A stretch of DNA of 55,185 nucleotides. It comes from Catajapyx aquilonaris (Eukaryota). The notes beneath the pieces were generated by a model. That model had not been told where the DNA came from. It saw only the letters and a program-made list of their open reading frames with translations, and ran no database searches. Made by a program: the position numbers and the translations under genes. Below, in pieces: positions 4,150 to 34,320 of the stretch. The stretch spans positions 62,001 to 117,185 of the forward strand of contig KZ538142.1 of NCBI GenBank assembly GCA_000934665.2. The letters are read 5' to 3'. Positions within the stretch are counted from its first letter, which is position 1, and every line of letters begins with the position of its first letter.

Positions 4150-4457
4150 TGATGTCATCACCACCTTTTGATGACGTAACTTGCTGACAAAGGTGCCAGA
4201 TGAAGCATATTGCAGATGTCATTTCCACTTCACCTGGTACCCCCGTCCTGACAACATCATCAAAGAATGACGTCACCACCACCTTTTGATGACGTAAATA
4301 TTGATAGGTCCCGCCATATTTGATGACGTAAGAGGACAGGGGTACCAGGTGAAGCAGAAACGACTAGCTGAAATGTGCCAGATGAAGCATATTGCAAGAA
4401 TGTCATTTCTTCTTCACCTGGTACCCTCGTCCTCTCTAGTATGTCATCAAACATGGC
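4150..4457. mobile_element. Hairpin MITE (4313-4457) preceded by a partial tandem copy
   Basis: gccatatttgatgacgtaagaggacaggggtaccaggtgaag ... cttcacctggtaccctcgtcctct..atgtcatcaaacatggc form inverted arms; gtgccagatgaagcatattgca occurs at ~4193 and ~4375; relative at 51158. Confidence 0.65.
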
Positions 4458-6155: not shown

Positions 6156-6620
6156 AAAAAAAACTTGAAAATCACGCGAGCGTGATTCGAGTACGTTAGG
6201 CCTTTTCTCAGTGGGAAGTGAAAATGGAGGCCCAAGTAACCGGTGACCTTCGACAGGGTCTTCCCTCCCCTCGGTCCATTAAACTGACAACTTTGTTGAT
6301 TACGATACGATACTATGCGATTCTAACGTGGACAATAATGACAGAGAATGTTGTCAGTCTCCATTCCGGTTTCCAAGAAATACATCAAAATCGATTCACA
6401 CGGTGTACACTCGACCAACTCGACCTTGGTGGATAGAGTGAACCCGGAAAGCAGGAAGTGGACGGTCACCGGAAGTAGGCCATGAAACCTATTTTGGTCA
6501 CTCTGAATCCGAATACGAAAACAGCTTGTCGCTATCTCCTGCGGTATAGGTCCTGATACCTGTCCACAGACGGACGGACATACATATAACCGTTCTATAA
6601 TACTTTTTATGAGAAAAATT
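6156..6620 (-). mobile_element. Helentron-associated non-autonomous element (HINE / DINE-1-like), copy 1
   Basis: On the minus strand: 5' TTTTTCTCA subterminal repeat, (GTCY)-type microsatellite, 3' TGAGAAAA partner, hairpin AATCACGC-NN-GCGTGATT (6170-6187), T-rich tail; collinear with 33943-34320. Confidence 0.75.
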
Positions 6621-11241: not shown

Positions 11242-11658
11242 TGATTGATTTCACAATTGGGTAGCTTTCCTTATTTTTTTTTATTTTTCGCCCTCCCTTA
11301 CACTACCCCCCCCCCCCCCAACTCCTTCCGCGCTTTGTGCAGAAAAGCTTAGCCGGAGATATACCCCCAGCTCGATGTGACATTTCCAAATGGAAAGTTT
11401 GGCGTTTTTCCCATTTTTTGCAGGGAAGGAAAGGGGGAGGGGGAGAGGGGACGGAGGAAAAGTTTCGACGTGGCAGACCGTGATATTCGCCGCACCAAGA
11501 ATAACCTCGTTTCGTGTTCCTTTTGTGCCTGGAGACTCGAGCAAACAACACTTGTGTATCCAGATTACTGCATGGAACTATACATTTCCCCTCCATCCAA
11601 TTCTTTTCCACGTCTTAGAAAGCGATTGTGGCAAAATGTTCCGGACACGATCAAGTTT

Positions 11659-11726
11659 GTCTGTACATTTGTTTGTCCATGTAGGATGCACCATCTATGT
11701 GAGAGATATGGTACTACATGAACAGT
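11659..11726 (+). mobile_element. Family X, short copy
   Basis: gtctgtacatttgtttgtcc...ccatctatgtgagagatatggtactacatgaacagt. Confidence 0.7.
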
Positions 11727-14717
11727 CCCAGGCAGGATTTGGCAAGTAATATCAGAGCAGCCTAGCTCTTCTCAGAAAGCACATCAATGAACACAAATAT
11801 TATCTTTATCGGAGGCTGGTATCAACACTCCCTCTCTGTTTCTGGTTGTGCCCTGAAGCACTTGCTTTTTGCTTGTTGTTGCGATTTCGCTCGGGAAAAG
11901 CAGAGCGGAGGACTCGTCCTTTTGCTTAACGAGGCGGCCTTCTTTTTTTAAAATCTTTTTTTTTAAAGTCTAGTTTCGCGTCATGAATATGCCTCGAAGG
12001 GGAGGAAGAAGGGAGGTTTTGCTTCTACCATCCAAAACAGCAGGCTGTCTTGGCTCTAGTCGTAAATAAATTATCAGCTCTTACCATTTCCTGTGCTCAA
12101 AAAGAGGATGAGTGACAGAGCACTCTTGGAAAACGATGCCCCTGTTTCTTACACCAAGGGCTCCAGCAAACTGCCAGCGGGATTGGGAGAAAACCAGAGA
12201 TTAATCGTGGCCTGGGGAGGGAAGGGAGGACAAAATGAAATATTCAAGGGAGGGAGGGGGGGGGGGGTAGTCGGAATAAGCAAGCGACGCCAGCAATTGT
12301 CATGCCCCGGTGATTAATACATTCATTGCTTGTTATCAGAGCGGCCCGGGCGCTAATCGTAATCAAGTGAGCATTGAATTCTGCTCCAGGTGGACCCCCC
12401 GCTTCCATGATTGGATTCGCAAAAATTACTTTTGGCAGAAACTGCACGGTGAAAACCTGCCTGAAATGGCTCGCGGATTCGAAGTATATAGGAATTTTAT
12501 AAAGTCTAGTTCGAATTTTTTTCAATTAATATTTGTCACGTACAACGTACAGTGCGAAATATTTTCCGCAGCTGAGACAGCCATCAATTAGCGCTTCATT
12601 AAAATTTTAAAATTGCGATCCAAACTATTCAACTTCAATTTCCGACAGGAATTCATGCATTGTACATTCGAGATGAAAATTTTTATTTCGTTTATTTTAT
12701 TATCGCTCATTTTATTAACCAATTAGTTATATTATTTCATTTCTTTCCATTACCTTACATTTTGTTGTTATAGTCTATTATTTTATTACTTTCTTATTAA
12801 TGGATCTATTGATTAAAATCGAAAATCAGAGCAATATGTTCCATTTTTTTATGGTATATTCCTTTCAGTGCCAATTAATTCAACCAGCTAGTTATGGTAG
12901 TGTGTCTTTACATAAAACTAACACTGCCAAATCCGGATTTTCACAACTCAATCAACATTACATCCAAATTTTTCTCTCGAACTCTAAGTCAATAAATCAG
13001 CAAAACTCAAATATCTGTCTCATATTGAAACCGAATATTTTGTGGAATCAACCCCCCCCCCTCCCCAACGTGACTCAAAATTCAAACAATGTATCCAGCA
13101 GCACCAACAGAACACCATGCTTGTTCCTCCCTATATATAAATTTTCATTTTGAGGAGAGAGAGAGAGAGAGGCCCAAGCAGAGAACCTCAGAGTAGTCGA
13201 ATTTACGGACTCCTGCCAACTACACTGAGCTCTATTGTGCGAAGGCGTTCCAACTTCCACTTCATGTTTATGTTTCAACTTGAAGGCTTACGTTAATTTT
13301 GCGCATGTTGAAATTCATTATGAAGGGAGGATTTTCTGGCCGCCTTCCCCTTGAAATCATAACTCTGTTGGGGAGGTTTTCCTCTGCTGGTGGTCTGCTC
13401 AGAATGATATGGAGGAATAACCTACAGGGGGGGTACGTCTGATGGACAAACGAGCTGGAAAGAACAATCCGAAAGGATTAAGCCTTTTTTTCCCCAGTGC
13501 GTTTCAAGCATTGTGATCACAAACCGCATTGGCGAAACGCACGGTTTTGCAAAGGAGCGTAATATTTTAACGCGACCGATTGTTTCGGGTTGCCAGCAAG
13601 TTTCTCCACTTGTTAGTTTCACCTAACTGAGAAGGGGGGGAGAAACTCGACGATCCAAATTATCCTCTCGGTGCTGACAAAACAAAAGCGCGTTTCCGTC
13701 TCTGTAAATTTGGTTACAAGTTCTTGTCACACGCGACGCGCAAGTGAAACCAGACTGACACGTTTTAGAGCCGGGAATAAACTGAAGAGAGGATTTAAAA
13801 CAATGTATAGGCGATGATTAATTAATTGTGTCGTTTCCTTAGAGTTAGGATTCGACAAAAGAATTTTTCAAGTAAAGGAGCGGTGCCTTTTTCTTTCAAG
13901 ACTCTCCAAAAAGACCTTTGATGATATAATGGGGGGAAAGGAAAAAGCAAGTGCACCATACCGTACTCGACAGGTTCTCAGGATGCTTGTTAACAGGTAA
14001 AGATTTTTTTTCAAGAACTCATTGAACTAGCTGGATCCTATCGGCGGAAATAATTGAAGCCTGCTTATTTGCAGCTCTTGACCATTTAAGTTGATGAGTT
14101 CCAAATATAGGTCAGTTGCTGGGAGTGCGAATTATTTTGTAAACAAAATGATGACATTAAAATAATTTCTCTGCATATTGCAATTACGAGGCCACCACTT
14201 AACTAATTATCGCGCATGCAATTTTACTAACATGCTGTGACGCATTGCACTCCATTATTACGGGTAATTTTTGTAAGACAATGAGTCATTGGTTTAATCA
14301 CTCGCGTAATCAGGCGTACCTTGTGTATGTCAAACAATTACGCGTAATAAAAATTGCAATTAATTTGCAATCTACGTGAGAGTGAAAATTTCACCCTGGA
14401 ACATAGGACTTTGTTCTGCAGCAAGGCTTTAGGTGAAAAACCCAGCAATGAGAGACACAGCTTCCAAGTTGTGACCGCGGTAGTGCCGGATCGAAGTGCT
14501 TTCCTTTCCTCTCCTGGCCACTACTCACCCGCAACTCCCAAGCCTTTGGTGTTGGGCTCCTAACATTAGGACCCCCCTCGTTACTCTCACCGAGGATTAG
14601 TGGAGAGAGTTGGGAGGACCGCCGATCATTTTGCAAGCACAAGACAAAACTTATGCTCCGGACCACAGTTGTTAAAAATTTACGTCCATCCGGTGGGATG
14701 AAGAGATGTTGGTATAG

Positions 14718-14753
14718 ACTCACCTGCAAGGAAAGAAAAATTGCGATTAGTAC
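14718..14753 (-). promoter_or_regulatory. Candidate recursive splice site (ratchet point) RS-2; junction 14724|14723
   Basis: Minus strand reads gTACTAATcgcaatttttctttccttgCAG|GTGAGT: branch point (A at -24), polypyrimidine tract, acceptor directly abutting a consensus donor. Confidence 0.75.
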
Positions 14754-17700
14754 ATGACACAATCATACTCGGCATAATTTTTTAAAACTAGCGTAAACCC
14801 CCTTAGTCCGAGACTAGTGTAGACTATCCTTCTATTTAGGAATCACATTTATTTCCTGATATAAAAACACATAGTATCACTATCAACCCAAGAGGTTCGG
14901 ATTGTTCGTCCTATTTTTCTCCGATTATTATCAGGAGGCATGATTTTTTCGAGGAGGAATAACCGAGAGCGGGGAGGTTATCAACTTGCAAGTCATGGTG
15001 ATGTCTCAGAAAAGTCGCCTCCGTAACAAATCCTCCCTCGAGAAGAGAGCGGTTCTTATCATGAAAAAACACTATCACCAGAATCCCCTCCGCAAGTCAA
15101 AACGTATTTTTTTTTCGGAAAGCGACAGGACAGGGGGGGGGGGCTTTTACTTTGGCCTAAGTCTAATTTTCCAACCTTGTTTTTCTTTGTCCGGAAAGGT
15201 CGATTTATTCTAAACAACATTTTCCTGGCAGGAAGAGGAGGCGGCATGTAAGCCATTAATGCAGGTTTAATCAAATTAAATTTGAAGCCCTAATAAATTC
15301 CGAGGGACTCAGAACGTGGAGAGNGGGGGGGGTAGGCCCTGCCAGCAAAATTTTAAATGGTGATTACGTTTTCAGGATGGGAATGGCAAAACGATCCACC
15401 TGAAAAGCAAAGCAGGCCTCTGCAAATCGGATTACAACTATGGGGAGAGGCAGAGACGATGAGAAAAAGAAAGTTGAAACATGAACTACTAACAGCAGAG
15501 AAGAAAATGAATTTTTGTGAGTGTGTGGCATACCGCAATTTCATCAGTCGCAGATCACCGGTTGTTGCCTCTCCCATTTTCATTTCTAAGCCTCTCAAGT
15601 CAAACGAGTTTATTATTTAAAAGGTTCAGACTCAAAAGACACTAGGTTTCAGAACAATCCGGTAATGCCTGGTTGCAATGTCGCTCAAATCTAATCAAAA
15701 TTAATATAACAAAATATGACTGCAGGGAATCAATGCGAGGCGTGGTTGGCCACCTCAGATGAGGTAATGCAAAACTTGGTCTTATTGTTTTCAATTCACC
15801 GGCTGTGCCAAAATCGTGTCGAGACAACCCGCTGCTGTTATCATAAATGGACCCAGGGCTATCCAGCTTTAGTTAACCGACTGTCAATCCACTGATTGCT
15901 CCATCAATCATCGGAAGCTGGAAGGTGCGGTGTACGCCTCTGCGCCATGAAAGAAAGGAGGGTATAGGGTAGGGTTGGTGTGCGGGGGATGGGGGTACAA
16001 ACTAACCCCACTTCACCCCCTCCCAGAGTTTCCCCTCTCTAGAAAAAGAGAGCAGCGTAAATGGCCCCTTGCATGTTGATACTCCGTCGGCTTCCTGCTA
16101 ACGTTGACGAATTGGGAGGTGGGTTTGCAGAACGGCGCCAAGTCATGGGGGTTTCGCAGTATTTTTTTGCGACTACTTTTCCTGCTCCACGCTCCACGGT
16201 GCCTTGTTCTCCCACTCACCCACCCCCCAAAAAATCCAAAGCTCCAGGAGAAAATGGAGGCCAGAATTTTAGCTCTTCTCAAGATTTCCCACTTATTCCA
16301 AATACTTTTCGCAAAATTTAAAAAGCCCCAAAAATGGTTATTTCAGAGCACAGCAATTCTGCTGCGGGCTGAAGCAATGCATCACACACACTAAGCTTTT
16401 GCAAAAGATGAAGGCGGATGAAAGAAGAAGAAGAAGAAGAAGAAAAAAACGCGAACTGGATAATATCCGCGGCAATTGCCAATTTAGCGAGAGCTCCGTT
16501 GAAAGTGAGGAACGCGATTCCGGATTCCTGACGGATCCAATCTCTTCCCTCCCTCCCACCATCTATTGATAGGCTAATTTTCGCAAAAATCTTGCACACC
16601 AGAGTGTGAAATCGACATCGAATTCTGAGGGTGTTCTATGAGCCCCCTGCAGGCCCGCTCACACTCTTCAAAGTGGAAATAAGTGACTATCACGCAGCCT
16701 TTGATACGCAAAGTTCGCGTTGGACTGGGTTAATTATCGGTTAGCGCCTGCAGTGCGACACAGCCGATGTCGCCACACCATTGAATCCGAGGTTCCTCAT
16801 GTTCGGCATCCATAGAAAAGAAACGTTAAGCCCGTCTTTTTTGGTGGGCGTCTCCAGGCAGTGTAATCCACTCAGTCTGGAACAATCTTCCCATGGCGAC
16901 CGCAAGAAAGTTGACCAGATCACCTCCCATAATCCTCAGCGTCGTCCAACCCCACGACTCCTTCCATTTCCTCCACGTCTTTTCCGGATTACCAACACTT
17001 CACTTCGTCCCCACCCCCCTCTGGAACCATCCGGAAAAAAAAATAGGACTGATACATCACGCAGGCTTTGAAACATGAGGACAGCAGGCAGCACACGTAC
17101 GCCTCCTAACATGCGTGATGCACTCTGCTCGCCCATCCTAAATCATCCGGACAACACATTAGGAAATGGACCACGAACAGGTCCGGACACGGGCTCGGAG
17201 CAAAATGAAGAGTTGCAGTGACCGAGTAACTTGCGCGCACACACACACAAAAGCCTATGGAAACTTGATCGCACCAAAAATGGCAACTACCATATGATTT
17301 TGGATTCAAAATGGCGACGTTATCAGACTTGATATGGCGCCTGCCACGTGGTCGGATCCAAAATGGCGGCCACGTATTGAATTGACCCTAAGGACGCAAT
17401 TAACTCCAATTAATTAATATTCTGTCCTTATTATTCTCTATAGACCTTGCTATAGACTATAGAGGGATAAAGTAGTGATGTAAGTCACACACTCCTCACC
17501 CTCCACCTACCCATTAAAAATTATGATCGGATAATATTTCCGGGGAGGTAAGCTAGGCCCCTTCCCCTCCCTCCCCCTGCCTCCAAACCCGAATTTATCG
17601 AGCGCAGAAAAACATTCATTACCTAATGAGAAATGATTACCCAATGCCCGAGTATGACATCTCTCATCAATCACCAAAGTTTGCTCCACGTCGAAACCCG

Positions 17701-18289
17701 ACACTGTAGCAGTTTGCACATGTCAAACGGGGGAGGTCATAACAGACGGTCATAAACGTCGCACCGGTACTCAAACCACTGTTAGTTTTAACAAAAAAAC
17801 GATAATTCAGGGCGGGGGNGGGGGGGGGAATTATATGCATGTGCGCTTATTCAAACAAAAACATATTGGACACGTTTCCGTTATAGACAGGTTTGCAGAT
17901 TAGTTACTAACAGGGTTCAAATAATCACAAATCATTCACGGCTCCAATAATAAACATAACAGTACATTAATATTTTGCATATAAATATTATGAAATAAAT
18001 AAAACTAATTCAAATAAGTAAGATATAAGTTATTGTAATGAACATAAAATATGCAAGTACGTATAACAGAACGGAATATAATTAATATATAAAATATCAT
18101 TTCGTACAATGATTTAATAAATAACATACTATTAATACAGTAAATGAACCGATTTAATAAAATAATTTAATTTAGCGGAATAACAATTTAATAAAACAAA
18201 ATGTAGTTTAACATGTATAGATTTAATAATTACATATCATAAAACATATAACAAAATAAAATTTAGCCTGATACATTACAAAAGATAAG

Positions 18290-18321
18290 AAATAAATAAA
18301 TAAATAAATAAATAAATAAAT
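18290..18321. repeat. (TAAA)n microsatellite at the end of an AT-rich tract
   Basis: About 8 copies. Confidence 0.9.
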
Positions 18322-19659
18322 GGAACACCTCTGCTTTGGCGTAAGGTTATGCTGAGCATTTGCAAAAATTCCACTTTAGTGGCTACACAAAAATTCCGGT
18401 TGCGATATCAACGAACCCTGGCATTGTAAAGAGATCGGCCACCGAGTGGGCCGACCCCTTTCCTACCAAAATTTAATAAACCGTCTGGATCCCCCCCCCN
18501 CCCCGCCCCCTTCCTTCTAGGAAAAAAAAAGAAAAGAAAGAAAAGAGAAGGAAGCTCCTCCTAGGGGCTTTCATCTATGGTAAGATAGGTTTCCCTTCCA
18601 ATACCCAACAGCAATAGAATGATAAATCCGTTTGAAATATAGACGTGAGTCAATATTGCTTCAGCTCCATTGATCCAGCTGCTGGAGTCCCATTGCAACC
18701 TGTCCCTGAGGCTCATTCAATAGCACCAAGAGCGAAGAAAAGAAAATTGGTGGGAGGAGGTGGGTGGGGTGGGGAGGAAATAAAAAAAAGGGGGGGAGGA
18801 GGAGAAGAAAATGATTGCTGCTTCACAAAACCAAAAAACCAAGAAGAAGAAGAGGAAGAAGAAGAGGCTTTCACTCTTCGATTGTATACAGGGTGGTGCT
18901 ATGTCCAAAATCAGCCTAGCCAGCCCACAACCAGCCTCTCATTTGCCTCCCACACACAAGTGTTCCCACTTTCCCCGGTGACCACGGGCGGGAACCCAGA
19001 CCTGGGCGGGAACCGTAACGTCAACACAACACACGTTGCGCGTTACATAGAACAGTAGGCATGAGGTTCAGCGCTACTCTATCGTGACTTGCGGATTGTT
19101 GCGACCCACTCCGGACAACTCTGCCCAGATGACGACCTTGCCTTGAGTTGTGTAGATGAGAAGTGCAGCACCCTGTAACACCTTAGGTGGGTGGTCGCAG
19201 GGGTGGAAAGCGGTCAGAGCAAAAGTGGCAAGAAGTGAGGTGAAGTGGAAACATGGCCTGGAGTGACATTGATGGAGTGACCGGGAGTGGTGGGTGGGGA
19301 AGGAGGCCACCCAAACTTTTTTTTTTTACTTTCTCTCTCTCTCTCTTTCTTCTACTTTTTTTTTTTGCCAACCCTGTTCCTGACGGATAGCTTTGGCCAC
19401 CTTGTCCCGGCCTCGCTCCAGGGAAAGAATGCCTGCAGCCGGGGCTTCCAATCAATGGCGAGGAAGAGTCGGGCTTGTCACGTCTGACAGCCCATGATTT
19501 GACGCGTGTCTGAGGTGACAACCCGCAGGACCTCTTGCTGTCGAGTCACCCGCACACACCCGCGGGTTTTCCAAACACTGTCCGTTTCACTTGCCAATTA
19601 TTGCCACTAATCCCGTTACTAAGCAGTTATATCACGAGTAATTAGTTGGACAATGATAA

Positions 19660-20241
19660 GTGCCACTGCTATTTAAAGTATAGCAGCGACTTCTACAGGC
19701 GATAAACAGCAGCTCAGTTTAGAGCTGAATTTATTTCCAGAGATTAGTGAGGTTTGACTGCCATGGAATTCGGTCGCCATGGCAACCAAACCTGGGCAAA
19801 CAAGCGAACAAACAAACTTTGCATTTTATAATAATAGTTAATAATACACGTGGTCATTGCTACTGCTACATCGATTTTCACTGGTGATACATAGCTGCTA
19901 AGCTTAGAGCTGAATTTATTTTAGAGAGTAATGAGGTTCGGTTGCCATTGAATCTGGTCTCACAGACAGCCAAACCTGGACAAACAAACATACAGGCAAA
20001 AAACAAACAAACAAACCTTGTCTGATATAATAAATTAAAAGTTAATAATACATGGTCACTGCTACTGCTACAGCTATTTTCACTGCCAACTATAGCTGCA
20101 AAGCTTAGAGCTGAATTTATTTTTGAGCTTTTACATATTAATGTTAAAGAGGTTTGGTCGCCATGGAATCCGGTCACCATGACAACCAAGCCTGAACAAA
20201 TAAACAAACTGACAAACTTTGCATTTTATAATAAGAGGGGA
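19660..20241 (-). mobile_element. Three tandem ~185-200 bp units, each with a Helitron-like 5' end
   Basis: agagctgaatttattt recurs at 19721, 19906 and 20107. On the minus strand the array begins A|TCCCCTCTTATTATAAAATGCAAAGTTTG followed by (TTTG)-type repeats, resembling the 5' ends of non-autonomous arthropod Helitrons. No clear CTRR 3' end was found. Confidence 0.65.
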
Positions 20242-21302
20242 TTAATGAGAAACTTTGGGCACCCACTCCGGATAACTTGTGAGGGCGATAAGAAGCTCTG
20301 GGCGCCATGACAGTTTAGGAAAACGTTCTGTGAATTCGCGGCCTATTTTAATCGTTTCAAATGGAATCTATATACCAAACCCTGCATTAATGCGATCCAG
20401 ATCAAGATTTCCGCAGTGTGTTTAGACCCCTCTGCGCCTAGATGATATCGGGGCACACCCGAAACAGTATGTGTTTTTGCGGCAATCGATAGCTAGATGA
20501 GCAGCGAACAGCTTGCGCCCCACGACCGGTCAAGTCACATGCAACCCCGTTAACGCCAGGAATGATATTTACTACCGGACGTCCCCCCAAGACCAACCAG
20601 TGCAACTGCAGTGTTTATGTCATAAACGATAATTCCCCAAAGAGCAAACCCTGATTTTTTTGTACTTTTTTTTGGTACGCTTCAGGAGGGCGTAAATTCC
20701 GTGCTCGCACGCTTCAAATCGTGACCGGCATTTTGAAAATAACTCTCTCACTCCCTCCCTCCCCTCCCCACCCTCCTACGTTTGCCAAAATAAGGCAGCT
20801 ATATCTGGGCACCCACCGACAGCCCTACAAGTGCGGAAGAAAATATGCCAACTTCCGGTCCCCTTTAAATGTGCAACCATTAGCAATTCATCTGACCTAA
20901 TTTTAGAATAAGCACACATACATTCACATGCACCACACCCACACATGCACACCCTCCAAAAAAGCAGCTAGATTGTCACGACTATTTGTAAAGATCACTA
21001 TTTCTGATCCATACAAGCGGAAAATATTTGTCGGCTGGAAAAGTGGGAGAAAAATAGTGTGGTCAGTATAACCATTCATTTTTCCAATTCTGCTTTCACT
21101 TGTCCACAATAACACAATGGCAATAACAGCTAACAATAATAATAAACAAAATAAATGAACACAACAAAAGCGATCAACAATGATAAGTAATTGAACTATA
21201 ATGGTGGATATTGACAAAGAATGATTGATAAATACAAATATTGATAAGATTCAGTGCAGCAAATATTGGCAGAAATAATAGCGTATGTAGAATTGGCTAG
21301 GG

Positions 21303-21388
21303 TTCTGTATGTCCGCGGTGAGTCATCATTAGTGTGAAGATAGGGAGGATACGCCATATATGTGAGAAACATGCTGCTATGTCCACAA
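21303..21388 (+). mobile_element. Family X, diverged copy
   Basis: tgtccgcggtgagtcatca...cgccatatatgtgagaaacatg. Confidence 0.6.
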
Positions 21389-22535
21389 TCCGGGAGAAGG
21401 GCGATGTTGCCAAGTTTTGGCAAGATGTTCACGTTCGCACAACTAATGAGTAGTCTATATATAAATGGTAAAAAGGGAAATTAATTAACTAATTGAAAGA
21501 AAATATAACAATAAAATGACTTCAACGAGCTGTAGCAGTGATCACTCTTATGCGGAAATAGCCGTTTTGCTCAATGCCCGTTTGAACGCACACGCACACA
21601 CACATTGTGACAAAAGCAGTTTGGGATTACAGCGTCCCTTCCCTGGCCATAAAATGTAACAAAAATGAAACTAATGTGACTGAATTTGAGATCAGTGAGC
21701 CCAACTGATCGAGCATATTAACCGGGTCTGATTGGATGGGCAAACAGAGTTTTGGATGGCAATTTCCCGCGATGATTGGGGGGGGGGGGGGGGGGGCCCC
21801 CNNNNNNNNNNNNNNNGGGGGAGGCCTCCCACCCCCACCTCCACCCACCATACCAGCAACCAAAACCAGGCCTCAATGCCGATCGAGGTCTTTTGAAATC
21901 CGGTGAATCCGGCCGCAAACAAAAATATGAAGCGCAGATCAAAGGAGCCCAACAAGCAAGCCTTGTATACCGGAGCCCCGGATAAACCGGAGCGCTAAGT
22001 TCATCAGTGGGTGGTATGGGAGGGGTGGTGGTAGGGTAGGTCTATAACTTCGTGTTTTTTTTTCCCCCTTCCCCAACCAGGCCCCCCGTAAATGTGCTGC
22101 TGGCATGTCATTCGGAATAACCCGGACTGATTTAAATCCGGGGCAGCAGCAAGCACAGGGCGAACCGTAAAAAGCAGCACCTCGGCTCTTAACTAAGCGA
22201 TGTTGAAAAGTACCCAGTTGGTTCAATCCACCCTGTACTTATCCTGCTGTTGCCCGCTGCTTCGTTTAGTCCGGTAATTACTCCGGTAGCTCGGACAGGA
22301 AAAGGGGGCGGACTGGCCCCCGGATTTTTGCTCGTTTTCTAACTGAAGCAAACTTAATCACAGCCAGATGAGAAAAGTGTGTGCTCCGGAGTCAAATCAG
22401 CTTTTGCATGGGAAAAAGAACAGAAGGGGGGACAGCCAATGTAGGGCTTTCCTTCCGTGCAATTTGCCAAACTGGGAAGGAGCAAAATCACTCTTGAAAA
22501 TCCAGTCCACACCTTGAATATGATAGAACTAAGCC

Positions 22536-22853
22536 ACTGTCCACGTAGTACCATACCCCTCACACAGATGGCGCACACTTTTGCCACTCCCAGGGTCGTT
22601 CGAGGGGAAGTAGTACAGTTCTGGACATTAACAGTGTACTGGTGGCGCCATGATCCGATAGCGGCAAAAGAGCGAATCGAAATTTGCCTCCGGATGACCT
22701 CCACCTGATTTATGATCGAGCGAAGGTGGTCATTCGGAGGCAAATTTCGATTCGCTCTTTTGCTCATGGCGCCACCAGTACGACACCATTAATGTTCAGC
22801 ACTGTACTACATGCTGCACCTAGCTCAATCCGGACAAACAGAGGCACAGACTC
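22536..22853 (-). mobile_element. Family X copy carrying a nested MITE
   Basis: actgtccacgtagtaccatacccctcacacagatggcgc at the left end, ggacaaacagaggcacagactc at the right end. Confidence 0.8.
22616..22804. mobile_element. Tc1/mariner-type hairpin MITE with TA duplication
   Basis: TA-CAGTTCTGGACATTAA ... TTAATGTTCAGCACTG-TA; inner arms gtactggtggcgccatga / gcaaaagagcgaatcgaaatttgcctcc are inverted. Confidence 0.85.
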
Positions 22854-23482
22854 CAACAACAGCACTCACAGCAGGTCCAGAGACACAGAGTTTCTCTGAA
22901 GCCCTTCTGCAGTCCGGCCCTTGTCGCCCGCCACTGAAAAGCAACCCCCCCCNNNNNNNNNNNNCCACCACCACCACCATTCAAAAGGTCTCCCCACCTC
23001 CCCCCAAACCCTGAAAAGGTATGCAAATGTAGCAGCAGGTCAGTGTCCCTGGGAGCCTCCCCGGAAACTGAGCCGCCATTTATCAGTGGCACGCATCTTA
23101 TAAACGCATTATCCAGTGGTAACACCACCACACACAGGACCGGACGGTCAATGCCGAAGAAAAGAGGCTTTGTGATCTCCCATCCCACCCCCCACCTCAC
23201 CACCACCTACCTTCCAAGCCGAACCACTAAATAATTGGATTTACGGTCTTGGAAGGGTTAATAATAACCACAATGAGGCGCGTAATGAGCGTGCAGGTGG
23301 CGCCAGCGGAAGACAATGAGGCGTTTATACACACCATCAGTTAAATGCGCCTTGCTGTGCTGGGCGGGGTCCATTCGTTTTAATTAGGGGGATATTTTCG
23401 CCCACCACCTTCCAACCCTGTTTCTAAGCGAGCCTAAGATATTTTTTTTTGGTCTATCTATTATCTCATATAGATGCCCAGA

Positions 23483-23608
23483 CACGAATGTTATCCTGAC
23501 TGTTCAATGCAACCCATTCGACTGTCTTGAACAACGGGTTGCTTCACTCCCAGGATATTTTTAGTGTTCCCAGCACATTGTTGCACATCAATGTGAGCGA
23601 ATAAATTG
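23483..23608 (+). repeat. Dispersed repeat fragment, copy of 1897-2050
   Basis: Direct homology by eye over more than 100 bp; a 43-nt poly-A follows at 23660-23702. Confidence 0.8.
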
Positions 23609-23657
23609 ACCCGCGAGAGTCCAGGTGGGGGATACAAATCGAGGGGGTGTGGGTGTT

Positions 23658-23703
<46 letters not shown>

Positions 23704-25221
23704 GAAATTGAAAGAGAGAGTAACTCACATCAGGCGGTCCAATGGCGTCGGCCAGGTTCTGTGTAATGGAAATTCAGTGTTTACAGAGGCTCCAATTCAG
23801 GGCGTCACTTGGGGAGATATTTCCACAGGAAATGGCACGCATTTTTTTGTTTAGTTGGCCATGTTGCCACGGACGCCAATGGTCGACCGGCGTGTAAAAA
23901 TTGGCTAAAAACTGCAATCTCGACATGTTCTGATAAATTGCGGACATCTTTTTTTTTTGCGAAATTCCCTCGTCTTCTAACAGTGCACAAGGTCTGGCGG
24001 GTTTTCATTATGAAGGCGCATAATAAGTGAGTCCGGATCGTTATGCACACAAACTCCGGGTTTCTAGTGAAGAGAGGGGTAGGGCAGAGGGGCGATTATT
24101 ATGCGCCCTACAGCATACGTGCAAACAAGGCCCCGGAACAATAAGCGAAAAACAATTGTGCCGCTCCAGCCTTCACGGACTGCTGGGTTTTGGGCCACTG
24201 TTGCTGGAAAAGCTCTGGAGGGAAAAAGGTGTAAGAAAATGTTAAGAAACAATGAACTAACAATTAGCTGGTACGACTGGCCGTATATATAGTAATAAAA
24301 GTTGAACTGAATTTTTTGCTTTAAAGAAAGGTGATATTCTGGCTTTGACCAGTACAAAATTCTGACTTTGAAAGCTGTTACGCCAACCTTTTAAAATTTT
24401 TGTATCGACACCCCTGGCCCCCAAGGCGATTAAATATGTTTACAAAACCTGGTAAGCCCCCAGAGCGAGCAGGTCAGTTCGAGAGAGGCGGATAATACGA
24501 GCAATTTTTTATATTTAAAAAAGTTCAAAGAATCGCAAATATTGGTTTCCGCCCGCTTTTTTCCCCTATAGGAGAGATCCAACCTGTGGTCAGCTAGTTT
24601 GCTAACGTCCATTTTACTCTAGTTGCTTGGGATTTCCATCAGAAATTGCGGGGCCCATTACTGCTTCCAGCAAGCCTCTCCTTTCTCCAGCTGACATCAC
24701 GGCCTATCTGCAAGAACGGGTCAAAGGGAGCGGCAACATTAACGCCATTGTGACTTCGCCTCTAACGAAGTGGGGCTGTCTCAGGATTAAACACACTGCC
24801 CCCATCAAGCTAATGCCTCTCCCCCCCTCGTACTCTTATCAACAAGAAAACGCAGAATTTCTAGAGAACAGGCAGTCAGCTCTCCCATAATTACTCCTAT
24901 TTTGGGAACCCGCAAATTATTGAATAACTAGAGTACATCAGGTTTCGTGCACACTACTCCCACGCTTTTCACAGGTCAAATTCCGCCATATTTGCGATCT
25001 AGTTCTCGCGCAAGTGTTTTTATTTTTTGGTCTTCCTCCCAATTTTTTAAGGATGTGGTCCTGTCATGTGGTTGGTGACGAGATGGCCCGAGCAGCAGCC
25101 TCCGCATTGATCCTGGCAGCCTGCTCCAGCTGCCCAAACTCCAGCGTCTTAATCCCAGATATTATATGCCGCTGCAAAACTTGGCAATGTGTCCATGTTA
25201 CAACATCTATAACATGGAATT

Positions 25222-25325
25222 GAGTACGAGCCGCTGTTTGTCCGGGGTGAGTCATCATGAGGTGCATGTAGTACTCCTAACCCTGAGAGTGGCGGTAGTG
25301 TGCAGGGGCGCCATCTATGTTTGAG
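25222..25325 (+). mobile_element. Family X copy
   Basis: gagtacgagccgctgtttgtccggggtgagtcatca..aggtgcatgtagt...gcgccatctatgt. Confidence 0.7.
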
Positions 25326-26920
25326 TCAACCAATCATGAGTGTTGCTGCAGAGAGCCAATAAGCTCTTCTTCAGATGGTTCCAAATTCTGCACGGTATTT
25401 CTCGCAGAGCTCCACACCACCGCCCCTTTTGCCCGCGGCTGGGAGTCAAATGGGGTAATGAAAAATCAATACAAGTTGTACCGGAGCAGAGATGCAGGGA
25501 GGAGATGAGGGGGGGGGGGGACCTCTCTTCTCTTTAGCCTTCTCCTTTTCTTCTGCTTTTAGCTCCTTAGCAGTCGCCGCTCGAGCCCGCAACACTTGCA
25601 ACCCATTCCGGATGTCTCGATACGCCTTGTCCATAGCTAACTAGCAAAAGTCCACGATGTGTGCCAAACAACCTCACGTGCCACAAATTTTTTGTACTGA
25701 TATGACTCTTTGTAGACTTACAAGTTGGCAACCCGCAGCCTCTTCTCCGAGATGATCGAATAACACCGGAGAAAAATGAGGTGTCGCGTAACAGAGTTAG
25801 AGTTAACATAATAATATCCCCCCACAGTTTTCTGGAGGATGGAGGGGAAATAACGGGCCTGAAGCAATTGGCTTTGGAGAGACACCTGTAAATTAGGCGT
25901 TCAGGGAGATCAAGGGAGGGCTGCCGAACTTCCGGATATTACTGTGTTACTAGATAGTTAGATTACACGTTCAGAGCTGCAAACTATTGCAAAGTATGCG
26001 CGTCCTTCACGACACCGTAGCCTGGATGCCAATTTGCGCATATTTGCAAATTATTCACATGTGTGCAAAATGTGCGCAATTTTCTGCTGGATTTAGGCTT
26101 ATTGCGGGTGTACGAGACGAAATTGCTCTAGTTGATTTTGGCGATTTCAGCTTCATTTGGGAGATAACAGCTTGTAATGTCGGATGACCCACGATTATTC
26201 CTAAGGATTTGTGGCCTAACGTGCAGGATAATCCCTTTTCACCAGGCTACTAACAACCAATTATCTAAGTCCTGAAGCCAAAACAGACAAAACCAACTAG
26301 AACAATTTTGTCATAGAAATTCGCAACAAGCTCAGTGCGCCAGTGTGCATTAAAATCTCCCGACTTCATTTTCTTTTTCTCGTCTCCATTACCGTATCGT
26401 CATCTTAATTAGTTGACACAGCACGTTACATCTGCCCCCCTCCCCCTTCCTCCACCGACTATTCTTTTATTAGTTCTCATGCTGCGCACCATAAGCACTC
26501 AATGGAACCCAACCAACCGAAGAAAAGTTATTAGACCGCGGCTACGACCCCCTTCCGCATGATCCTTTCACGTGATTGGTTGAATCTCTAATACCTCCCC
26601 CCCCCCTACCCCACCCCCGCTCCCTTCAAAAAAAAAGAGGGGGGGGGGGGTAAAAATNCCCCCGCTCCCTTCAAAAAAAAGAGGGGGGGGGGGTAAAAAT
26701 TGGGGTGGATGGGAGCTAGAGGGAAGGGAGGGAGGTGGTGGGGGGAGAGAAGAAAAGTGATCGATCAGTTCCTGACATGAATCCCCATCAGCCTTAATCG
26801 CGAATCGGGTGTTTGGCTTCCTAACACATCTGCTGATGGTGGCTGCCTTTTGTCGTGACGCCTTTTCTTGGCTCACTTCAATATATTGCCAAGTTAACCG
26901 GGGTTTGGGGGGGGGGGGGN

Positions 26921-27110
26921 ACGGGGTAAGTGCATAAACTGGCCGCCATATTGGAATGAAAATGGCTGACATGCTCACCTCTTGTGGGGATGTGATGTGC
27001 AGCTACACAAAAGAGTGCCTGACGTGTTTTGGTGTCGTCAGCCATTTTCATTCCAATATGGCGGCCCCGTGTATGCACTTACCCCGTGTATGCACTTACC
27101 CCACTTCACC
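26921..27110. mobile_element. MITE of the GGTGAAGTGGGG-terminus family (left end lost at a poly-G/N join)
   Basis: cggggtaagtgcata on the left, two tandem tatgcacttacccc plus acttcacc on the right; perfect 30-bp inner inverted repeat 26941-26970 / 27037-27066. Confidence 0.8.
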
Positions 27111-28643
27111 TTAATAAAAGTAACTAATAAACAAAATATTTAAAAAAATGTCTAATGCACAATAAGCAAATATATAATATCAATAATAAAATATTTGATA
27201 CAAATGCTGTAACTAATACAGGAACCAAATAGCTGAAATATGGAGTAAGCTGAATTATATTGCAACAAAATTTACTAATCCAACTAAATATGTACTAAAC
27301 TCAGAAATAACTAACGCAAATAATAAAGGAACTAATGCGGATAACTATTGCCGATGCATGTAACTATTACAAATTTATAATGAATAACCAATGCGGACAA
27401 ATATTTTTAAACGAATATAAATGAATAGTAAATGAGATAATACTGTGGAAGTTATACACTATTATACAATGTACAGGCATCACGAGGCGCATGTTTCATT
27501 TCCTCGCATTTATTGAGGAAGCAGAGGCAACTAAGGCCATGATAGTGGCAGAAAATGGTATCTTACCCTGGAAGACCCACACTAGCTCGAAAAGAACTTC
27601 TCTGAACCCCGCCCACTTTCTCAACATCAGAAGTTGTTCCCTTATTAACTCTCAAACCGCTTATGATCCGGGGCTAGATGCGGAAACTCCTGGCCGTGAA
27701 GCAACATCATTGTTGCCACCTGCGCGCACATTAAATTTAAAAAGAAGAAGAAAAAAAAAAATCCGAGCCACAGAAAAAGAGAGTTGGGGGTTTTTTCCGG
27801 TCCGTTTTCTTCGCCAGCAAAAGGCCTTGGGGTGAGTACGAAGGAACGGTTAATCTAGTGGATGGCCCCCAGGAGGGCCGTCGTTTCCCTTATTAATTCA
27901 CAGCCAAGGTGGCGCTTTCAATCCCGGAAGATGAGAGCCAAGGTAGGGTTAAATAAATAATAAAAAAGGAGGAGGTTCAAAAATAAAATAAAATAAAATA
28001 ATAAAAAAGAAACCAGCTCACACGCAATTTCCGCAGGTAATAGAAACATCTCTGCTGGATAATAACGTGCGAAAATTTCGCGCCTGAATCATTTACAAGA
28101 TGGCGTCATTCGCAAAAAAAATTTGGCGCAGATTTAAACCTCCTCACTTTATTTGAACAGGAGCGACCCCATTGGCTGATACACGTGCGGCGGCGGTCAA
28201 TAAAGCACACAATCGACAAACGGAACTTTAAAAAAAAAAAGTGCAACTGGCACCATTCCCGCTTCTTTCTCGCAAAAAAAAGTGTGCAAAATTTTTTCCA
28301 GCGATCAACGCATAGATACGGGCTAAGCACCGTTCCATTACCCGACTTTTTTGTGCTGCAAATATTCCACACATTGGTTGCCGAGGATTTATGTCGTGGG
28401 AGATTTACACGTTGGACTAACCGCTGGGCCTCGCACCTTTCCCGGGACACTACTTTGGGGACAGGGGGGCGAAGGGGGGGGGGNGGGGGGTCATTTTATG
28501 GATTACCGTGGCCCCGGTATCTAACGCCAATTTTTTAGTCAGCAACGAACGATGAGAGACTAAAAGCGTGTCCGTTTTCATGCAAAATGTACACGGAAAG
28601 CACAGACCATTTGTCCCATTGGGCATTTGAAAATGCGATATTC

Positions 28644-28772
28644 GTCCTGGGTGAGTCATCAGCTAGGTGCATGTAGTTCTGCCACTACTTCTCCACGACT
28701 CTGAGTGACAGCAGTGTGTACGAAAGGGAGGACGCGCCATGTCTGTGAAGCGTATGGTACTACGTCGACAGT
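28644..28772 (+). mobile_element. Family X copy
   Basis: gtcctgggtgagtcatcagctaggtgcatgtagt...gcgccatgtctgtgaagcgtatggtactacgtcgacagt. Confidence 0.7.
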
Positions 28773-29438
28773 TGTGGACGCTGCATATGATTTTTTTTAA
28801 CGAACGTAACCGAGTGAGCACCACAGTTGGTGCATCCTTCACGGTTGGAATTATCAATGATATAGCTTGTATGCTCTGTATATCGGGTGTACTGCGCTGC
28901 ACTTATTTCCAAAGCTACGCTTGGCGGCTTCGGGGAAAACAAAATGGCCGACGTTTGCGACGTTGCAAAGGCTCTGGAACGAACCTAAGAGGCTGCGAGT
29001 GTGAATTATTTTTTAGCCCCTGGGGAGTAACTCTGCTGGCTACACTGTTGTCAGAACAAGGGAGCTGGGCGAGTATGGGTGCGCACTCGGCTGCGCTAGT
29101 AAAAATCAGCTGTAGCAGCTAAAATAGATTGTTATTATTCTCCTCTTCTTCCAAACGCAGCCACTCGATCATGTAGGCTACTGCGACCATCAAAGAACCG
29201 GTATTCCGTCATTTTTTGACGCCGTGATATCGGGAATTCCCCGTGAAAACAAATTACCCCTCCACAAGCAAATATTTAGCTTCATCAAACCCCCCTCAGA
29301 ATTGCAACACCCCATGTTTTTCCTTCGCAAAAAAATCGCCACCTCTTCACTCCCTTCCTGGTTGCAACATTATTTAAAAGCACGCACCGCAACTGCAATT
29401 CCCTATACTTACTCCTCTGAATACTTGCGATTCAAGTA

Positions 29439-29718
29439 GAGTAGACCCCGCTTATCCGGCTCCTCGGTTTATCCGGCAATAAATCTACGTTTTCTTGTGA
29501 AATATTGTAATGTTCTACGCATTTGTTTGTTTTGCCTTAGTTAAATTACTGTAAACACAGGGTGTGTGTAAGAGAAAAAAATACTTCACTATTTCTTGTA
29601 CGACCATAATTTCGTGTTTTTACGTTTTTTGTTGTGTTTTATTAAAGTCGTTTTACTCCTCGGGTTATCCGACGATGCCCTATAGTCCCGTGAGTGACGG
29701 ATAATCGGGGTTATACTG
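29439..29718 (-). mobile_element. pogo/Tigger-like MITE, copy 2
   Basis: TA-GAGTAGACCCCGCTTATCCG ... CGGATAATCGGGGTTATACTG-TA; interior is the reverse complement of 2081-2478 without the hairpin insert. Confidence 0.85.
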
Positions 29719-30397
29719 TATGTACATATGATAAAGCACCAACCCCTCTGACAACACCGTCCAATTGGAAAATTCAGGCTTGGAATTAGCGCACTGAGTG
29801 TGCTTCCGACCTAACAAACTAGAAAATTTCTAGAGCGTGACATCTTTAATTTTTGCCGCTGCAAGGTGGGGGGGTTGACAAAAACTCTCTTTTTTTGCGA
29901 AAGGGAGTGCGCACACACAATTTTGCAAAGTATGAAAATTATCCGCGTGAATATCCGCTGGGGGGAAAATTGAATAATCGAGAAGACGTGCAAGCCACTA
30001 AATGGTTTCGAGTGTTGCACCATGCAGAAGCGCCACCGCTTTTATACCAGCAATGGAAGGAGGAGGGAGGGAGGGGCAGGGAGGGGGAAGGGGGAAAATT
30101 ACCATCTCCGGGAAATTCGGGAAAATTTTCTAATCCCATCAGTATTCAACTAGCCCGTGCCGCAGGGATATCCAACTAGCAGATCGAGATTAAAAGTTGC
30201 TTCGGTGGGGCTTACACAGGACTAGTACGGGGACCAGGGCGGACTGACTGAATTTCCTACCCATGCATGTTGCCAATTGGGACGATGACCTTCTGTGCAG
30301 GTCAGGCCAACACAGAGAAGACGGGTCAACATTGCACAATTTAATATTAGCAGGCAAAAACTTGTAAATGTGGCCCATAGGACATATCTATTGGATT

Positions 30398-30512
30398 GGG
30401 TCTGCTGTGCTTGTTTGTCCGGGGTGAGTCATCAACTAAGATGTAGTGCCACTACCCCTTGCCAGACCATGATAGTGGCGCCATATATGTGAGGTGCACC
30501 ACATGGTACTAC
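30398..30512 (+). mobile_element. Family X copy
   Basis: tgtttgtccggggtgagtcatca...atgtagtgccactac...ggcgccatatatgtgagg...atggtactac. Confidence 0.7.
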
Positions 30513-31952
30513 TTTTCTCAACAGAAAGTCCTTCACGTTATATAGCCTCGATTCGGATCTAAACTGACATAGCAGCACACGTTTGAGTGGTCCTTTTGGC
30601 CTGACGGCCAGATGAAAAAAAACTTCGCATGTTAAATGTACACGCCTAATTTTGCGGAGTTCAAAATAGAGCTTGAAGCCCGACCTCTAATAACTTTCAT
30701 AACGATACCAATTCAATGATGATAAAACTAATTGCAAGAGCGGCCCATAATTAAGGCCTAAAATCTTGGGGATGTTACAGTAGGTAGGGTGGAAGGGTGG
30801 GTGGGGGCTAATCACGGGCCGGGGTTATTGGCTCTTCTAATATGACAGCGTTTCATAAACGACTGGCGAGCTCAAATTATGGATTGCAGTTGGGAAACTA
30901 CACCTGCTCATGTTAACTCGCACATTATAGCTGCGCATCCTCATTTGCCACGCTTGCCTGCCAAATTATTCATGCGCACAGCTCTCTGTTTATCCAAAGG
31001 AAACACAAATACATTATTGGACGTGTTGACGTATTCACTTCATATGCATGTGTCACCTAATCGATGCCGTTCCGAACCGACTGCTGCTGTTGGACCCCCC
31101 CACACGTCCTACGCTCGTTTCGTTCCATTTGTTGCCAAAATTTATTCCGCCATGTTGGGTCAGACACTGAAAAAAAATGTAGCACTGAACTAGTGCAATG
31201 TGCGATAAGATTCGGTCCAAGTTCCAGCTGAGCGAAATAATATTTCATAAAGTTGTTCCCAATAATTTTAGATTAAAAAGTGACTGCTAAGTTCCCCACG
31301 TACAAATGTGTCTGACAATGGACGCAATTTTGTTCACACTTCACAACTAGCGTTACAGATAATGTAAAACAGCAAAAGCAGTTAGTACTGCTAATGATAA
31401 ATGACGCTTATGACGAACGCTTAATTGGCCTGTTTTTAGAATCGCTTGAAAGTTGAACATTTTTCCAGGCAATATTTAAAACAGAAATTCTGGCAATATC
31501 AGACTGAAAAGCTGCATATTTGCGGTTTTAAAAACCCTGCAAGTGGCAAGCTAGCAGTACTCTTTATTATTTCGAAGACGACATATTCATAAAAATGAAA
31601 CAGCAAAAGTTGTTTAGTTAGGTGACAAATGGCTACACTCTCCCCCTTTTGTTCCAAGAGCTAGTGGTAACAACCCTACTTTTTATAGGTCTAGTTCCCT
31701 CTTCCCATTGCTTCTAATCTTCATTAATCCCGTCCCCCTCACCTCTTGTTCCATTTGCCACCAACGCCTTCCGACACTTTTCCTCAATCTTCTTTCTTCC
31801 CTTTTCTCCCCTCAATTTTCTTTAATCCTGTTTCCAAAAACTTAAAAGATTCCCAACCGCCTAAAACCCTATCAATTTTAACACTCTCGACAATTTATTC
31901 GCCTTTTAACTCACCAAACACCTGACGTATGCTACGAGACAGCAGGATGTGT

Positions 31953-31988
31953 ACTCACCTACAAAGAAGAAATAAATGTCATTAGTAC
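31953..31988 (-). promoter_or_regulatory. Candidate recursive splice site (ratchet point) RS-1; junction 31959|31958
   Basis: Minus strand reads gTACTAATgacatttatttcttctttgTAG|GTGAGT (branch A at -24); a second donor TG|GTGAGT follows 44 nt downstream (31914-31909). Confidence 0.75.
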
Positions 31989-33496
31989 AAGCATCATTAG
32001 AGTTTTCATTAGAGGTATATGAACACATACGTAGATGTGAATGGGTTTCAGTCAAAAAAAAAGTTTGGTCTCGAGGTCCCAAAAACTTGTTAAAGTTTCA
32101 AGGTCCTTGCATGGCTGCTTGGGACAGCCTGGTAGGTCAAAGAGGATTTTTTTTTAAATCCGTAAAATGAGGCTCGCCGTGTATGAACCTTCCCTCTTCC
32201 AAAAGGGGGAGAACTCTTTGAAGGCAAAACCAGAGCAGCCCCATTTAATTCTTACCTGGTAGGAAAGGCAGCCAAGCGCTCTCTAAACCCTCCTCAGACT
32301 GAGCTAACTGAAGAGTCTGCCAACACTCAAAGCGACTCATTCCACTCGATTGGACACAAGATGAGAAGATTTATTTTCCCGCCCTGCTGCCTTTCTTCCT
32401 TGCCTGTACTTTTAAAGACACGGGTACAGGCAAAGTAAGATATACAAAAAAGAAGAAGCCAAGGGGAAGAAGAAGCTGGCCCCCTTAATATAGAATGCAA
32501 TTTTAATCCATGGAGGCGGAAACAAGGCGGGGAATAGCACAGGCCTGTTACCTGTCGCGTGGTACATGAGAGAAAGTGTCAAAGTAGCCTGCCCCCGGCC
32601 TCGAGGGGAAATGCGAGGAAAGGTGCAAAGCTGACGCCGACGCCGGTTCTTGCCACCGACGCCGCCGACGTCCCCTCTCTACCCTCCCACTGCAACACTG
32701 CGGTTGCAAAAATTCCAACTTAGCAACAAGATAAAAACGCTCGTGCGCCGCAATATTATTTTGGTTGAAAACTATAGCAGCTATACCAGTTAAAAATAAC
32801 GCTTACTCGACCTGTGCTGGCCTCAGCTGTAATCTTAATAATTATGCACGTGTTGCAGCCCCTGGGTTCGCCCCTGGGCAATCAAGGGTAGGTTGTCCCA
32901 TGGGTTCATTATGGAGGGTCTCTAAGAGCGGATTAATGTAAGCTTAATTAGTGTCCAGCAGGAGAAATCAAGCAGCTTATAACTTGCATTATGTTAAACA
33001 GCAACGTGCATTGCCATTAGTTTACTTAATCACATCAAATTAGTGCCAGCCTCGTGTTTAATTTTCGGATAAAATATAATCATTCGGAACTTATTGTTGT
33101 TGTTTTTCGTCTCTTCCGCAAGCCCATTTTGTGGAGGAACCGTCTCCTATCGGCCCTGGAAGTCGTCTCACACCCATTGTTGGCTAACCGTCAAAAGCCG
33201 GGCCTCTCTCTCTCTCTCTCTCTCTCTTTGAGAAGAGGAAGGGGATCGGAGCAAAGTCCTGGGGAACGCGTTTTGCAAAAGCATGGCAACGCCGCCTGCT
33301 GGAGAGAGAAGCGCATCACCTCTGCTCTGTGAGGTTGGACGATCAATGGGGCCGGCCCGGGTCCACTGCGGCCTCCCCCAAAACTCTCTCATCTGGCAAG
33401 TGTAAGGTGCACTGCGGCTGCTGCACCGCCTCACCACCTCTCAGGGGAGGGTGGTTTCTTACTAACGAAACATCCGGTAGCGCCGCCTCAAAAACA

Positions 33497-33942: not shown

Positions 33943-34320
33943 TTTTCCTCATCGGCAAAAAAGAGTGTCTGTCTGTCTGTGGAGAGGCATCAGGGCCTAA
34001 ACCGCAAGATATAACGACAAAAAGTTTTCGGATTCGGATTCAGCGTGACCAAAATAGGTTTCATGGTCAACTTCCGGTGATCCACCCCTTCCGGTTTTCC
34101 GGGTTCACTCTATCCGCCATGGTTAATTTGCATGCAGATCACCTGTTAAATTGCGATCTTTGGCAACGGGAAATAAAACTGACAACAATCAATGCCGTTG
34201 TAGTCATATTATAATCGCATCGTGTCGTATCGTATAGGGTTTGTTAGCCTCATTTCCCACTGCCCAATGGGAAAAAGTCTACTCGAATCACGCTTGCGTC
34301 ATTTGCCAGTCTTGTCTTTT
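33943..34320 (+). mobile_element. HINE / DINE-1-like element, copy 2
   Basis: TTTTCCTCA 5' repeat, (GTCT)3, core shared with 6156-6620 (e.g. gtgaccaaaataggtttcatgg, ccgggttcactctatcc), TGGGAAAA, hairpin aatcacgcttgcgtcatt, T-rich end. Confidence 0.75.

Follow-up and report, generated by a model that had tools for sequence, protein, structure and literature searches.

To our knowledge, experimental proof of recursive splicing is almost confined to Drosophila and a few vertebrates. Here, we analyze two candidate recursive splice sites (ratchet points) on the minus strand of a 55,185-nucleotide (nt) stretch of the Catajapyx aquilonaris genome (assembly GCA_000934665.2, contig KZ538142.1, forward-strand positions 62,001 to 117,185), which is called the window hereafter and whose own numbering is used throughout. 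The system chosen for comparison is that of the Drosophila ratchet points with cryptic recursive-splicing exons (RS-exons), as found in Ubx, kuz, luna, and Bx (Duff et al., Joseph & Lai, and Pai et al., as far as the accessible text of these reports goes). According to the preprint of Duff et al., fly ratchet points consist of an acceptor and a donor juxtaposed around AG/GT (the slash marks the splice junction) with a prominent pyrimidine tract and strong conservation. TT at positions -5/-6 was found in 196 of 197 fly ratchet points, compared with 43.76% of all fly introns. The lariat-mapped branch points lie mostly between -36 and -21, the recursive introns measure 11-133 kb, and the recursive segments are on average 17,953 nt long (median, 16,368 nt). 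In the available portions of Joseph & Lai (2021), the fly ratchet point is described as the head of a cryptic RS-exon of about 50 nt, whose own donor usually loses against the regenerated one; the content of the exon shows little conservation and mostly does not keep the frame. For Bx and kuz, a weakened donor at the junction reportedly causes the cryptic exon to be included. The same donor competition is reported for vertebrate RS-exons, where the included exon carries stop codons (excerpts of Georgomanolis et al. 2016 and Blazquez et al. 2018).

For other animals, the published evidence is of a different kind. Shepard et al. (2009; PMC2773006, cited throughout from its accessible part) gave the consensus of ratchet-point (RP) sites as (Y)nNCAG/GTAAGT and reported motif densities per 100 kb of large intron of 2.2 in fly, 1.0 in mosquito, 0.81 in beetle, 0.54 in sea urchin, and 0.48 in bee, with 0-0.12 per 100 kb on the complementary strand. 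In the large introns of vertebrates, the sense-strand enrichment was near nil, with ratios of 0.9-1.5. A recursive site was also predicted in the 230-kb intron of the locust gene NPF1, with a U2AF65 pull-down as support (2022; PMC8892266, partial text). Junction-read proof outside Diptera and vertebrates did not turn up in our literature search, in which the accessible parts of the sources offered motif-level or indirect evidence only; this does not deny its existence elsewhere. The sequence-only reading of this locus had proposed that the two sites would extend recursive splicing to a poorly studied lineage if the organism were a non-dipteran invertebrate. This claim was overstated, as the enrichment of RP-sites in bee, beetle, mosquito, and sea urchin was already published in 2009 (PMC2773006).

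The two sites and the segment between them are as follows.

31953 to 31988, minus strand: site 1, composite acceptor and donor, second of 360 AG/GT in the window on the combined score, with consensus and shuffle counts in addition.
14718 to 14753, minus strand: site 2, composite acceptor and donor, first of 360 AG/GT on the combined score, with consensus and shuffle counts in addition.
14724 to 31958, minus strand: putative recursive segment (17,235 nt), bounded by the regenerated donor at 31958 and the acceptor AG at 14725-14724.

Both sites are best read as recursive splice sites in a long intron of a minus-strand gene, a reading to which we assign a probability of roughly 0.55. On the minus strand, 31988-31953 reads GTACTAAT + GACATTTATTTCTTCTTTGT + AG/GTGAGT (site 1), and 14753-14718 reads GTACTAAT + CGCAATTTTTCTTTCCTTGC + AG/GTGAGT (site 2). 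At site 1, the branch box GTACTAAT occupies 31988-31981 with the presumed branch A at 31982, followed by a pyrimidine-rich tract (31980-31961), a TAG that ends at 31959, and the donor GTGAGT (31958-31953). Site 2 is built in the same way, with the identical box at 14753-14746, the presumed branch A at 14747, a pyrimidine-rich tract at 14745-14726, a CAG that ends at 14724, and GTGAGT at 14723-14718. Counted to the first base after the AG (31958 and 14723, respectively), the presumed branch A lies at -24 in both sites, and the G of the acceptor AG at 31959 is 17,235 nt away from its counterpart at 14724. Re-reading of the minus strand and a comparison by script reproduced exactly the architecture, coordinates, and strand that had been noticed beforehand, and the -24 position and the 17,235-nt spacing were confirmed as well. 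Two further features were read from the sequence. Both sites carry TT at -5/-6 (TTGYAG/GT), which goes beyond the earlier description, and both are free of AG between the branch box and the acceptor AG. Upstream of the AG, 14 of 17 positions are pyrimidines in either site. The tested sequence-level features of the junction itself, namely the juxtaposed AG/GT, the pyrimidine tract with its TT, and the branch box, are present at both sites.

The resemblance to Drosophila covers the juxtaposed AG/GT, the prominent pyrimidine tract, TT at -5/-6, and the non-coding surroundings. The branch A at -24 falls inside the fly range of -36 to -21, and with 17,235 nt the segment differs little in length from fly recursive segments (mean 17,953 nt, median 16,368 nt). 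Site 1 is also followed by a weaker donor at about +44, similar to the fly RS-exon of about 50 nt described in the accessible literature. Unlike in Drosophila, where the branch-point distance peaks at -30, both sites share an identical branch box of 7-8 nt at exactly -24. A further difference is that fly ratchet points are backed by junction, lariat, sawtooth, and conservation data, whereas the present sites are candidates recognized from sequence.

With regards to chance, the individual motifs are unremarkable, and it is their association that stands out. YAGGTRAGT occurs twice in the window (both strands together), exactly at site 1 and site 2, compared with a mean of 1.09 in shuffled sequences and at least two occurrences in 26 of 100 shuffles. 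Nor is TACTAAT enriched when taken alone, with 9 occurrences compared with 6.3 expected. However, both YAGGTRAGT in the window carry TACTAAT at equal distance, and the composite pattern TACTAAY N(8-35) YAGGTRAGT matched twice in the window and not once in any of the 100 shuffles. Background frequencies were counted over the 110,230 positions of the unshuffled sequence, which gave P = 0.042 (4.2% of positions) for at least 14 of 17 pyrimidines upstream and P = 0.0039 (0.39% of positions) for a TACTAAY at -45 to -13. For the two features to coincide at site 1 as well as at site 2, the joint empirical chance is about 3e-8. The composite is found twice on the minus strand and not on the plus strand, a tiny sample for 55 kb. 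The architecture of the pair, its non-randomness, and its consistency in strand are observations. Sequence coincidences or decayed relics, functionless and located in intergenic or untranscribed DNA, would agree with the ordinary frequency of YAGGTRAGT and with the abundance of pyrimidine-rich tracts in the window, but they would leave unexplained the joint chance, the empty shuffles, and the agreement of the two sites in strand, branch spacing, TT at -5/-6, and strong downstream donors. We regard this explanation as improbable.

All 360 AG/GT in the window (172 on the plus strand and 188 on the minus strand) were also compared directly. A consensus filter left three sites, all of them on the minus strand. 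On a combined 3' and 5' splice-site score, site 2 and site 1 ranked first and second (21.2 and 20.0; mean -2.1, standard deviation 6.9), and the third of 360 was the AG/GT at 32255, likewise on the minus strand; the score matrices are rounded metazoan weights, and these ranks are indicative only. The strength of the donor halves permits another interpretation, in which the sites serve unannotated exons, for example of a long non-coding RNA, mainly as donors or with dual specificity, and not the stepwise removal of one intron. In unspliced RNA, the CAG/GTGAGT at 14723 would be the best donor of the window (12.7) and the TAG/GTGAGT at 31958 would reach 10.8, donors cluster around site 1 (32255, 31958, 31914, and 31742), and dual-specificity AG/GURAG sites have been described in human (as related in the accessible text of Georgomanolis et al. 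2016). These sites and the zero-length exon of rat alpha-tropomyosin resemble the present ones in that an AG/GT can be used as an acceptor and then, or alternatively, as a donor; unlike here, the partially available descriptions concern alternative exon use, or exon use linked to nonsense-mediated decay, in short contexts and not the subdivision of tens of kilobases. For a plain donor, it would be unexpected that the exon ends twice in a branch box, a 20-nt pyrimidine tract, and YAG, and upstream of the junction, each site has a complete acceptor module. We therefore consider a role mainly as donors to be very doubtful.

The close similarity of the sites also raised the question of a common origin, since their 36-mers have the same length and share 28 of 36 bases. 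If they were copies of a dispersed repeat or of a mobile element that carries splice sites (introner-like), the identity should not be as narrowly distributed as it is: the identical bases are those of the branch box and AG/GTGAGT, i.e., the splice-consensus parts, and the central 20 nt agree at 12 of 20 positions, both being T-rich. Compared without gaps over 100 nt and over 300 nt, the upstream flanks were 29% identical in each case and the downstream flanks 32% and 26% identical, respectively, which is the random level. In a self-BLASTN of the window, none of the 29 non-self high-scoring segment pairs overlapped either site. Because the flanks are random and no such pair covers the sites, both lie outside any repeat, and the earlier statement that there is neither flank homology nor a link to a repeat family holds. 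A 28-base degenerate pattern spanning both sites was found in no stretch of metagenome contigs, which is weak evidence because the organism may be absent there. With a flank identity of 26-32%, no segment pair, and two composite copies in the window, an origin from a repeat or an introner-like element was rejected as highly improbable.

In the model of recursive splicing, the stretch behind each site is of particular interest. The following donor-like sequences, which the earlier description does not mention, were found there.

31909 to 31917, minus strand: donor-like TTG/GTGAGT with the G of GT at 31914, +44 of site 1, score 8.7.
31737 to 31745, minus strand: donor-like GAG/GTGAGG with the G of GT at 31742, +216 of site 1, score 10.9 (99.95th percentile).
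14523 to 14531, minus strand: donor-like CGG/GTGAGT with the G of GT at 14528, +195 of site 2, score 10.8 (99.91st percentile).
14585 to 14593, minus strand: weaker donor-like TCG/GTGAGA, +133 of site 2, score 7.4 (98th percentile).

The donor at +44 of site 1 is in the 99.0th percentile of all GT (P about 0.03 that one of this strength falls between +25 and +80) and delimits a candidate cryptic RS-exon of 44 nt (31958-31915), across which one frame is open. The alternative RS-exon of site 1 (31958-31743) contains stops in all three frames. For site 2, the candidate is an RS-exon of 195 nt (14723-14529) with an open frame 0. Besides the two sites themselves, the window holds five donors with a score of at least 10.5, and two of them are the donors at +195 and +216; the binomial P for this placement is 1.7e-4, calculated with a window and a threshold chosen after the fact. 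By their sequence and position, the donors at +195, +216, and +44 could fit the RS-exon model.

The same donors could also delimit exons that are simply expressed. The sites would then be acceptors of exons (alternative, poison, or non-coding) that measure about 44-216 nt and happen to start with GTGAGT, either RS-exons of the annotated type or plain cassette exons, and not silent ratchet points. A very strong donor at +195 or +216 defines an ordinary exon length, a multiple of three in each case, and frame 0 after site 2 is open for 110 codons. In deuterostomes, expressed RS-exons outnumber cryptic ones (accessible parts of Joseph & Lai 2021 and Blazquez et al. 2018). However, all three frames downstream of site 1 are closed by stops within 16 codons, and the corresponding 123-aa stop-to-stop frame at site 2 is unremarkable, as the window contains 32 open reading frames (ORFs) of at least 120 aa. 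The 65-aa translation of the putative 195-nt exon had no match at E ≤0.001 among 1.84 billion representative proteins and belonged to no Pfam family. Because the frames close at site 1 and the frame at site 2 lacks a homologue and a Pfam family, a conserved coding exon at either site is unlikely. Two independent exons starting with GTGAGT would moreover be an odd coincidence unless they are spliced again, and the explanation would then become a variant of recursive splicing. Expressed exons are, in our view, an unlikely explanation. The site 1 stretch is also reminiscent of vertebrate RS-exons (Sibley et al. 2015, as presented in citing papers, and the available text of Blazquez et al. 2018), in which a recursive site is followed by an exon-sized stretch and a competing donor; that it is stopped in every frame is as expected where inclusion is harmful.

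The scans of the remaining window gave a similar picture. None of the 260 stop-to-stop ORFs of at least 66 aa (54 + 150 + 56) reached the Pfam cut-off, and this includes those inside 14724 to 31958. A search for RNA runs that contain 22500-32499 listed none, an outcome that speaks neither for nor against expression. Neither an Rfam scan of the window nor a tRNA search gave a match. The sole protein-level match within the window mirrors a DNA repeat with 76% identity, and the longest ORFs look like random frames. The missing Pfam, Rfam, and tRNA matches are compatible with an intron, and the window looks like non-coding animal DNA. The earlier statement that the 55 kb hold no coding exon is consistent with these scans, including the 260 ORFs without a Pfam match; it stands unproven, as short exons are possible. 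Three sub-threshold Pfam matches were obtained, all in the first set of 54 ORFs, two of them of low complexity and one a C2H2 zinc finger. The latter is encoded at 11381-11746 on the plus strand (E 4.8e-4, 20.9 bits with a cut-off of 25.2) and is probably a decayed relic, as the first cysteine pair is absent from the motif.

If both sites are used as recursive splice sites, the process can be pictured as follows. The U2 small nuclear ribonucleoprotein and U2AF would recognize the branch box (TACTAAT) together with the pyrimidine tract and its TT at -5/-6. A downstream donor (+44 or +216 in the case of site 1, +195 in that of site 2) would help to define a short cryptic RS-exon and thereby give the exon definition that is required for the first step. 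An upstream exon, located either near 32.3 kb or outside the window on its high-coordinate side, would be ligated to 31958, and a donor would be rebuilt in the form exon/GTGAGT. This rebuilt donor would outcompete the downstream donor and be spliced to the AG at 14724, which would remove the 17,235-nt segment along with the cryptic exon. A further round would start at 14723 and proceed to the true downstream exon. How strong the regenerated donor is would depend on the upstream exon, and this donor would have to compete with downstream donors that score 8.7 and 10.9 at site 1 and 7.4 and 10.8 at site 2. From the architecture of the sites, we infer transcription, the intron context, and the use of the sites. 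That the whole 55 kb belong to one intron would be a weaker claim than the same statement for the segment from 14.7 to 32 kb. Of the sequence-only reading, the recursive interpretation as such was partly supported by the tested sequence features, the rejection of the repeat origin, and the weakened case for a coding exon; a minus-strand transcript and a single intron that holds both sites are its predictions.

Several observations weigh against this interpretation. Both sites carry the donor GTGAGT, unlike the fly consensus GTAAGT in the accessible literature. Around +50, site 2 lacks a good donor, and those that come first, at +133 and +195, would delimit longer exons than the fly RS-exons of about 50 nt, as these are described in the same partial sources. 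The rounded score matrices, which make the ranks indicative, are to be counted here as well. Strand composition, which might have pointed to the transcribed strand, is ambiguous, because the direction of skew depends on the lineage: the minus strand has an excess of G over C of 4.3% and of T over A of 3.1%, both patchy (35 of 55 and 31 of 55 one-kb bins), whereas the coding strand of fly introns shows T over A but C over G. Finally, the third AG/GT near site 1 introduces further gene models.

32250 to 32275, minus strand: third composite AG/GT, ...ggctgcctttcctaccag/GTAAGA, third of 360 on the combined score, donor score 11.0.

This site (32256/32255, ...cctttcctaccag/GTAAGA) lies 297 nt upstream of site 1 and has a pyrimidine tract and CAG/GTAAGA, with neither TT at -5/-6 nor a CTRAY branch motif. 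Judged by these elements, it may serve as a recursive site of lesser strength or, alternatively, as the donor of an upstream exon that is not annotated. A strong donor at 32255 allows other gene models, such as an upstream exon that ends there, and the arrangement also allows a model in which site 1 would be the acceptor of a short ordinary intron of 297 nt starting from 32255.

The window has a GC content of about 44% and a CpG observed/expected ratio of 0.78. This ratio is far above the values for mammals. It and the low sense-strand enrichment of the motif in large vertebrate introns (PMC2773006, partial text) are differences from the vertebrate RS-exons, and the composition points to a probably non-vertebrate source. 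The sequence contains 225 N in 15 runs, mostly single Ns, which suggests a draft assembly.

The window further holds microsatellites and short dispersed or foldback repeats. Two inverted pairs of dispersed repeats (6301-6580 with 33966-34234, and 2079-2477 with 29440-29720) have an identity of 74-79% and are separated by about 27 kb; the first pair brackets both sites, and the second brackets site 2 alone. In a long transcript, such pairs could possibly base-pair and loop out the region between them, by analogy with the pairing of inverted repeats in large introns that was proposed by Shepard et al. (2009; PMC2773006, accessible text). Foldback elements resembling miniature inverted-repeat transposable elements are located at 44260-44431, 2221-2301, 4313-4457, 22610-22810, 26921-27087, and 54753-54868, and in the best foldback among them, a 32-nt spacer separates two arms of 70 nt with 97% complementarity. 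The microsatellites (TC)28 at 49056-49112 and (AG)22 at 49361-49404 are 250 nt apart and mutually complementary. Tandem arrays were found at 19684-20237 (three units of about 185-216 nt, 61-83% identical, and 72% over 352 nt by self-BLASTN) and at 52703-52820 (an AT-rich 23-nt repeat in five copies with 91% matches).

For a comparison with the predictions in other invertebrates, the accessible parts of PMC2773006 and PMC8892266 are most relevant. As in these studies, the present sites are candidates recognized by a motif and a strand bias in a long non-coding invertebrate stretch. The density of two per 55 kb on the sense strand and none on the antisense strand can be set beside the published 0.5-2.2 per 100 kb and a control of about 0.1 per 100 kb (PMC2773006, accessible part). 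In contrast to the genome-wide statistics of PMC2773006 and to the one site with a U2AF65 pull-down in PMC8892266, as far as these texts are available, the present case consists of two individual sites with a full branch box in a putative intron.

The two sites stand as a strong motif-level candidate of a known mechanism, and the mechanism itself is not new. If used, they would offer well-defined cases for testing it in a further genome, as the outcome to expect for junction reads, lariats, and minigene mutants is clear. In a 55-kb stretch that is otherwise featureless, they would also show on which strand a very long intron lies and how far it reaches, which would aid annotation. More tentatively, and with less confidence than for the use of the sites as such, they may be working ratchet points of the fly type (TT at -5/-6, a cryptic RS-exon, and a segment near 17 kb) that also carry an invariant branch box of near yeast grade at -24, in an animal that is neither a dipteran nor a vertebrate. 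If this possibility proved true, the silent ratchet design of the fly would be old and widespread in animals with long introns, and some lineages would reinforce it with a hard-wired U2 binding site.

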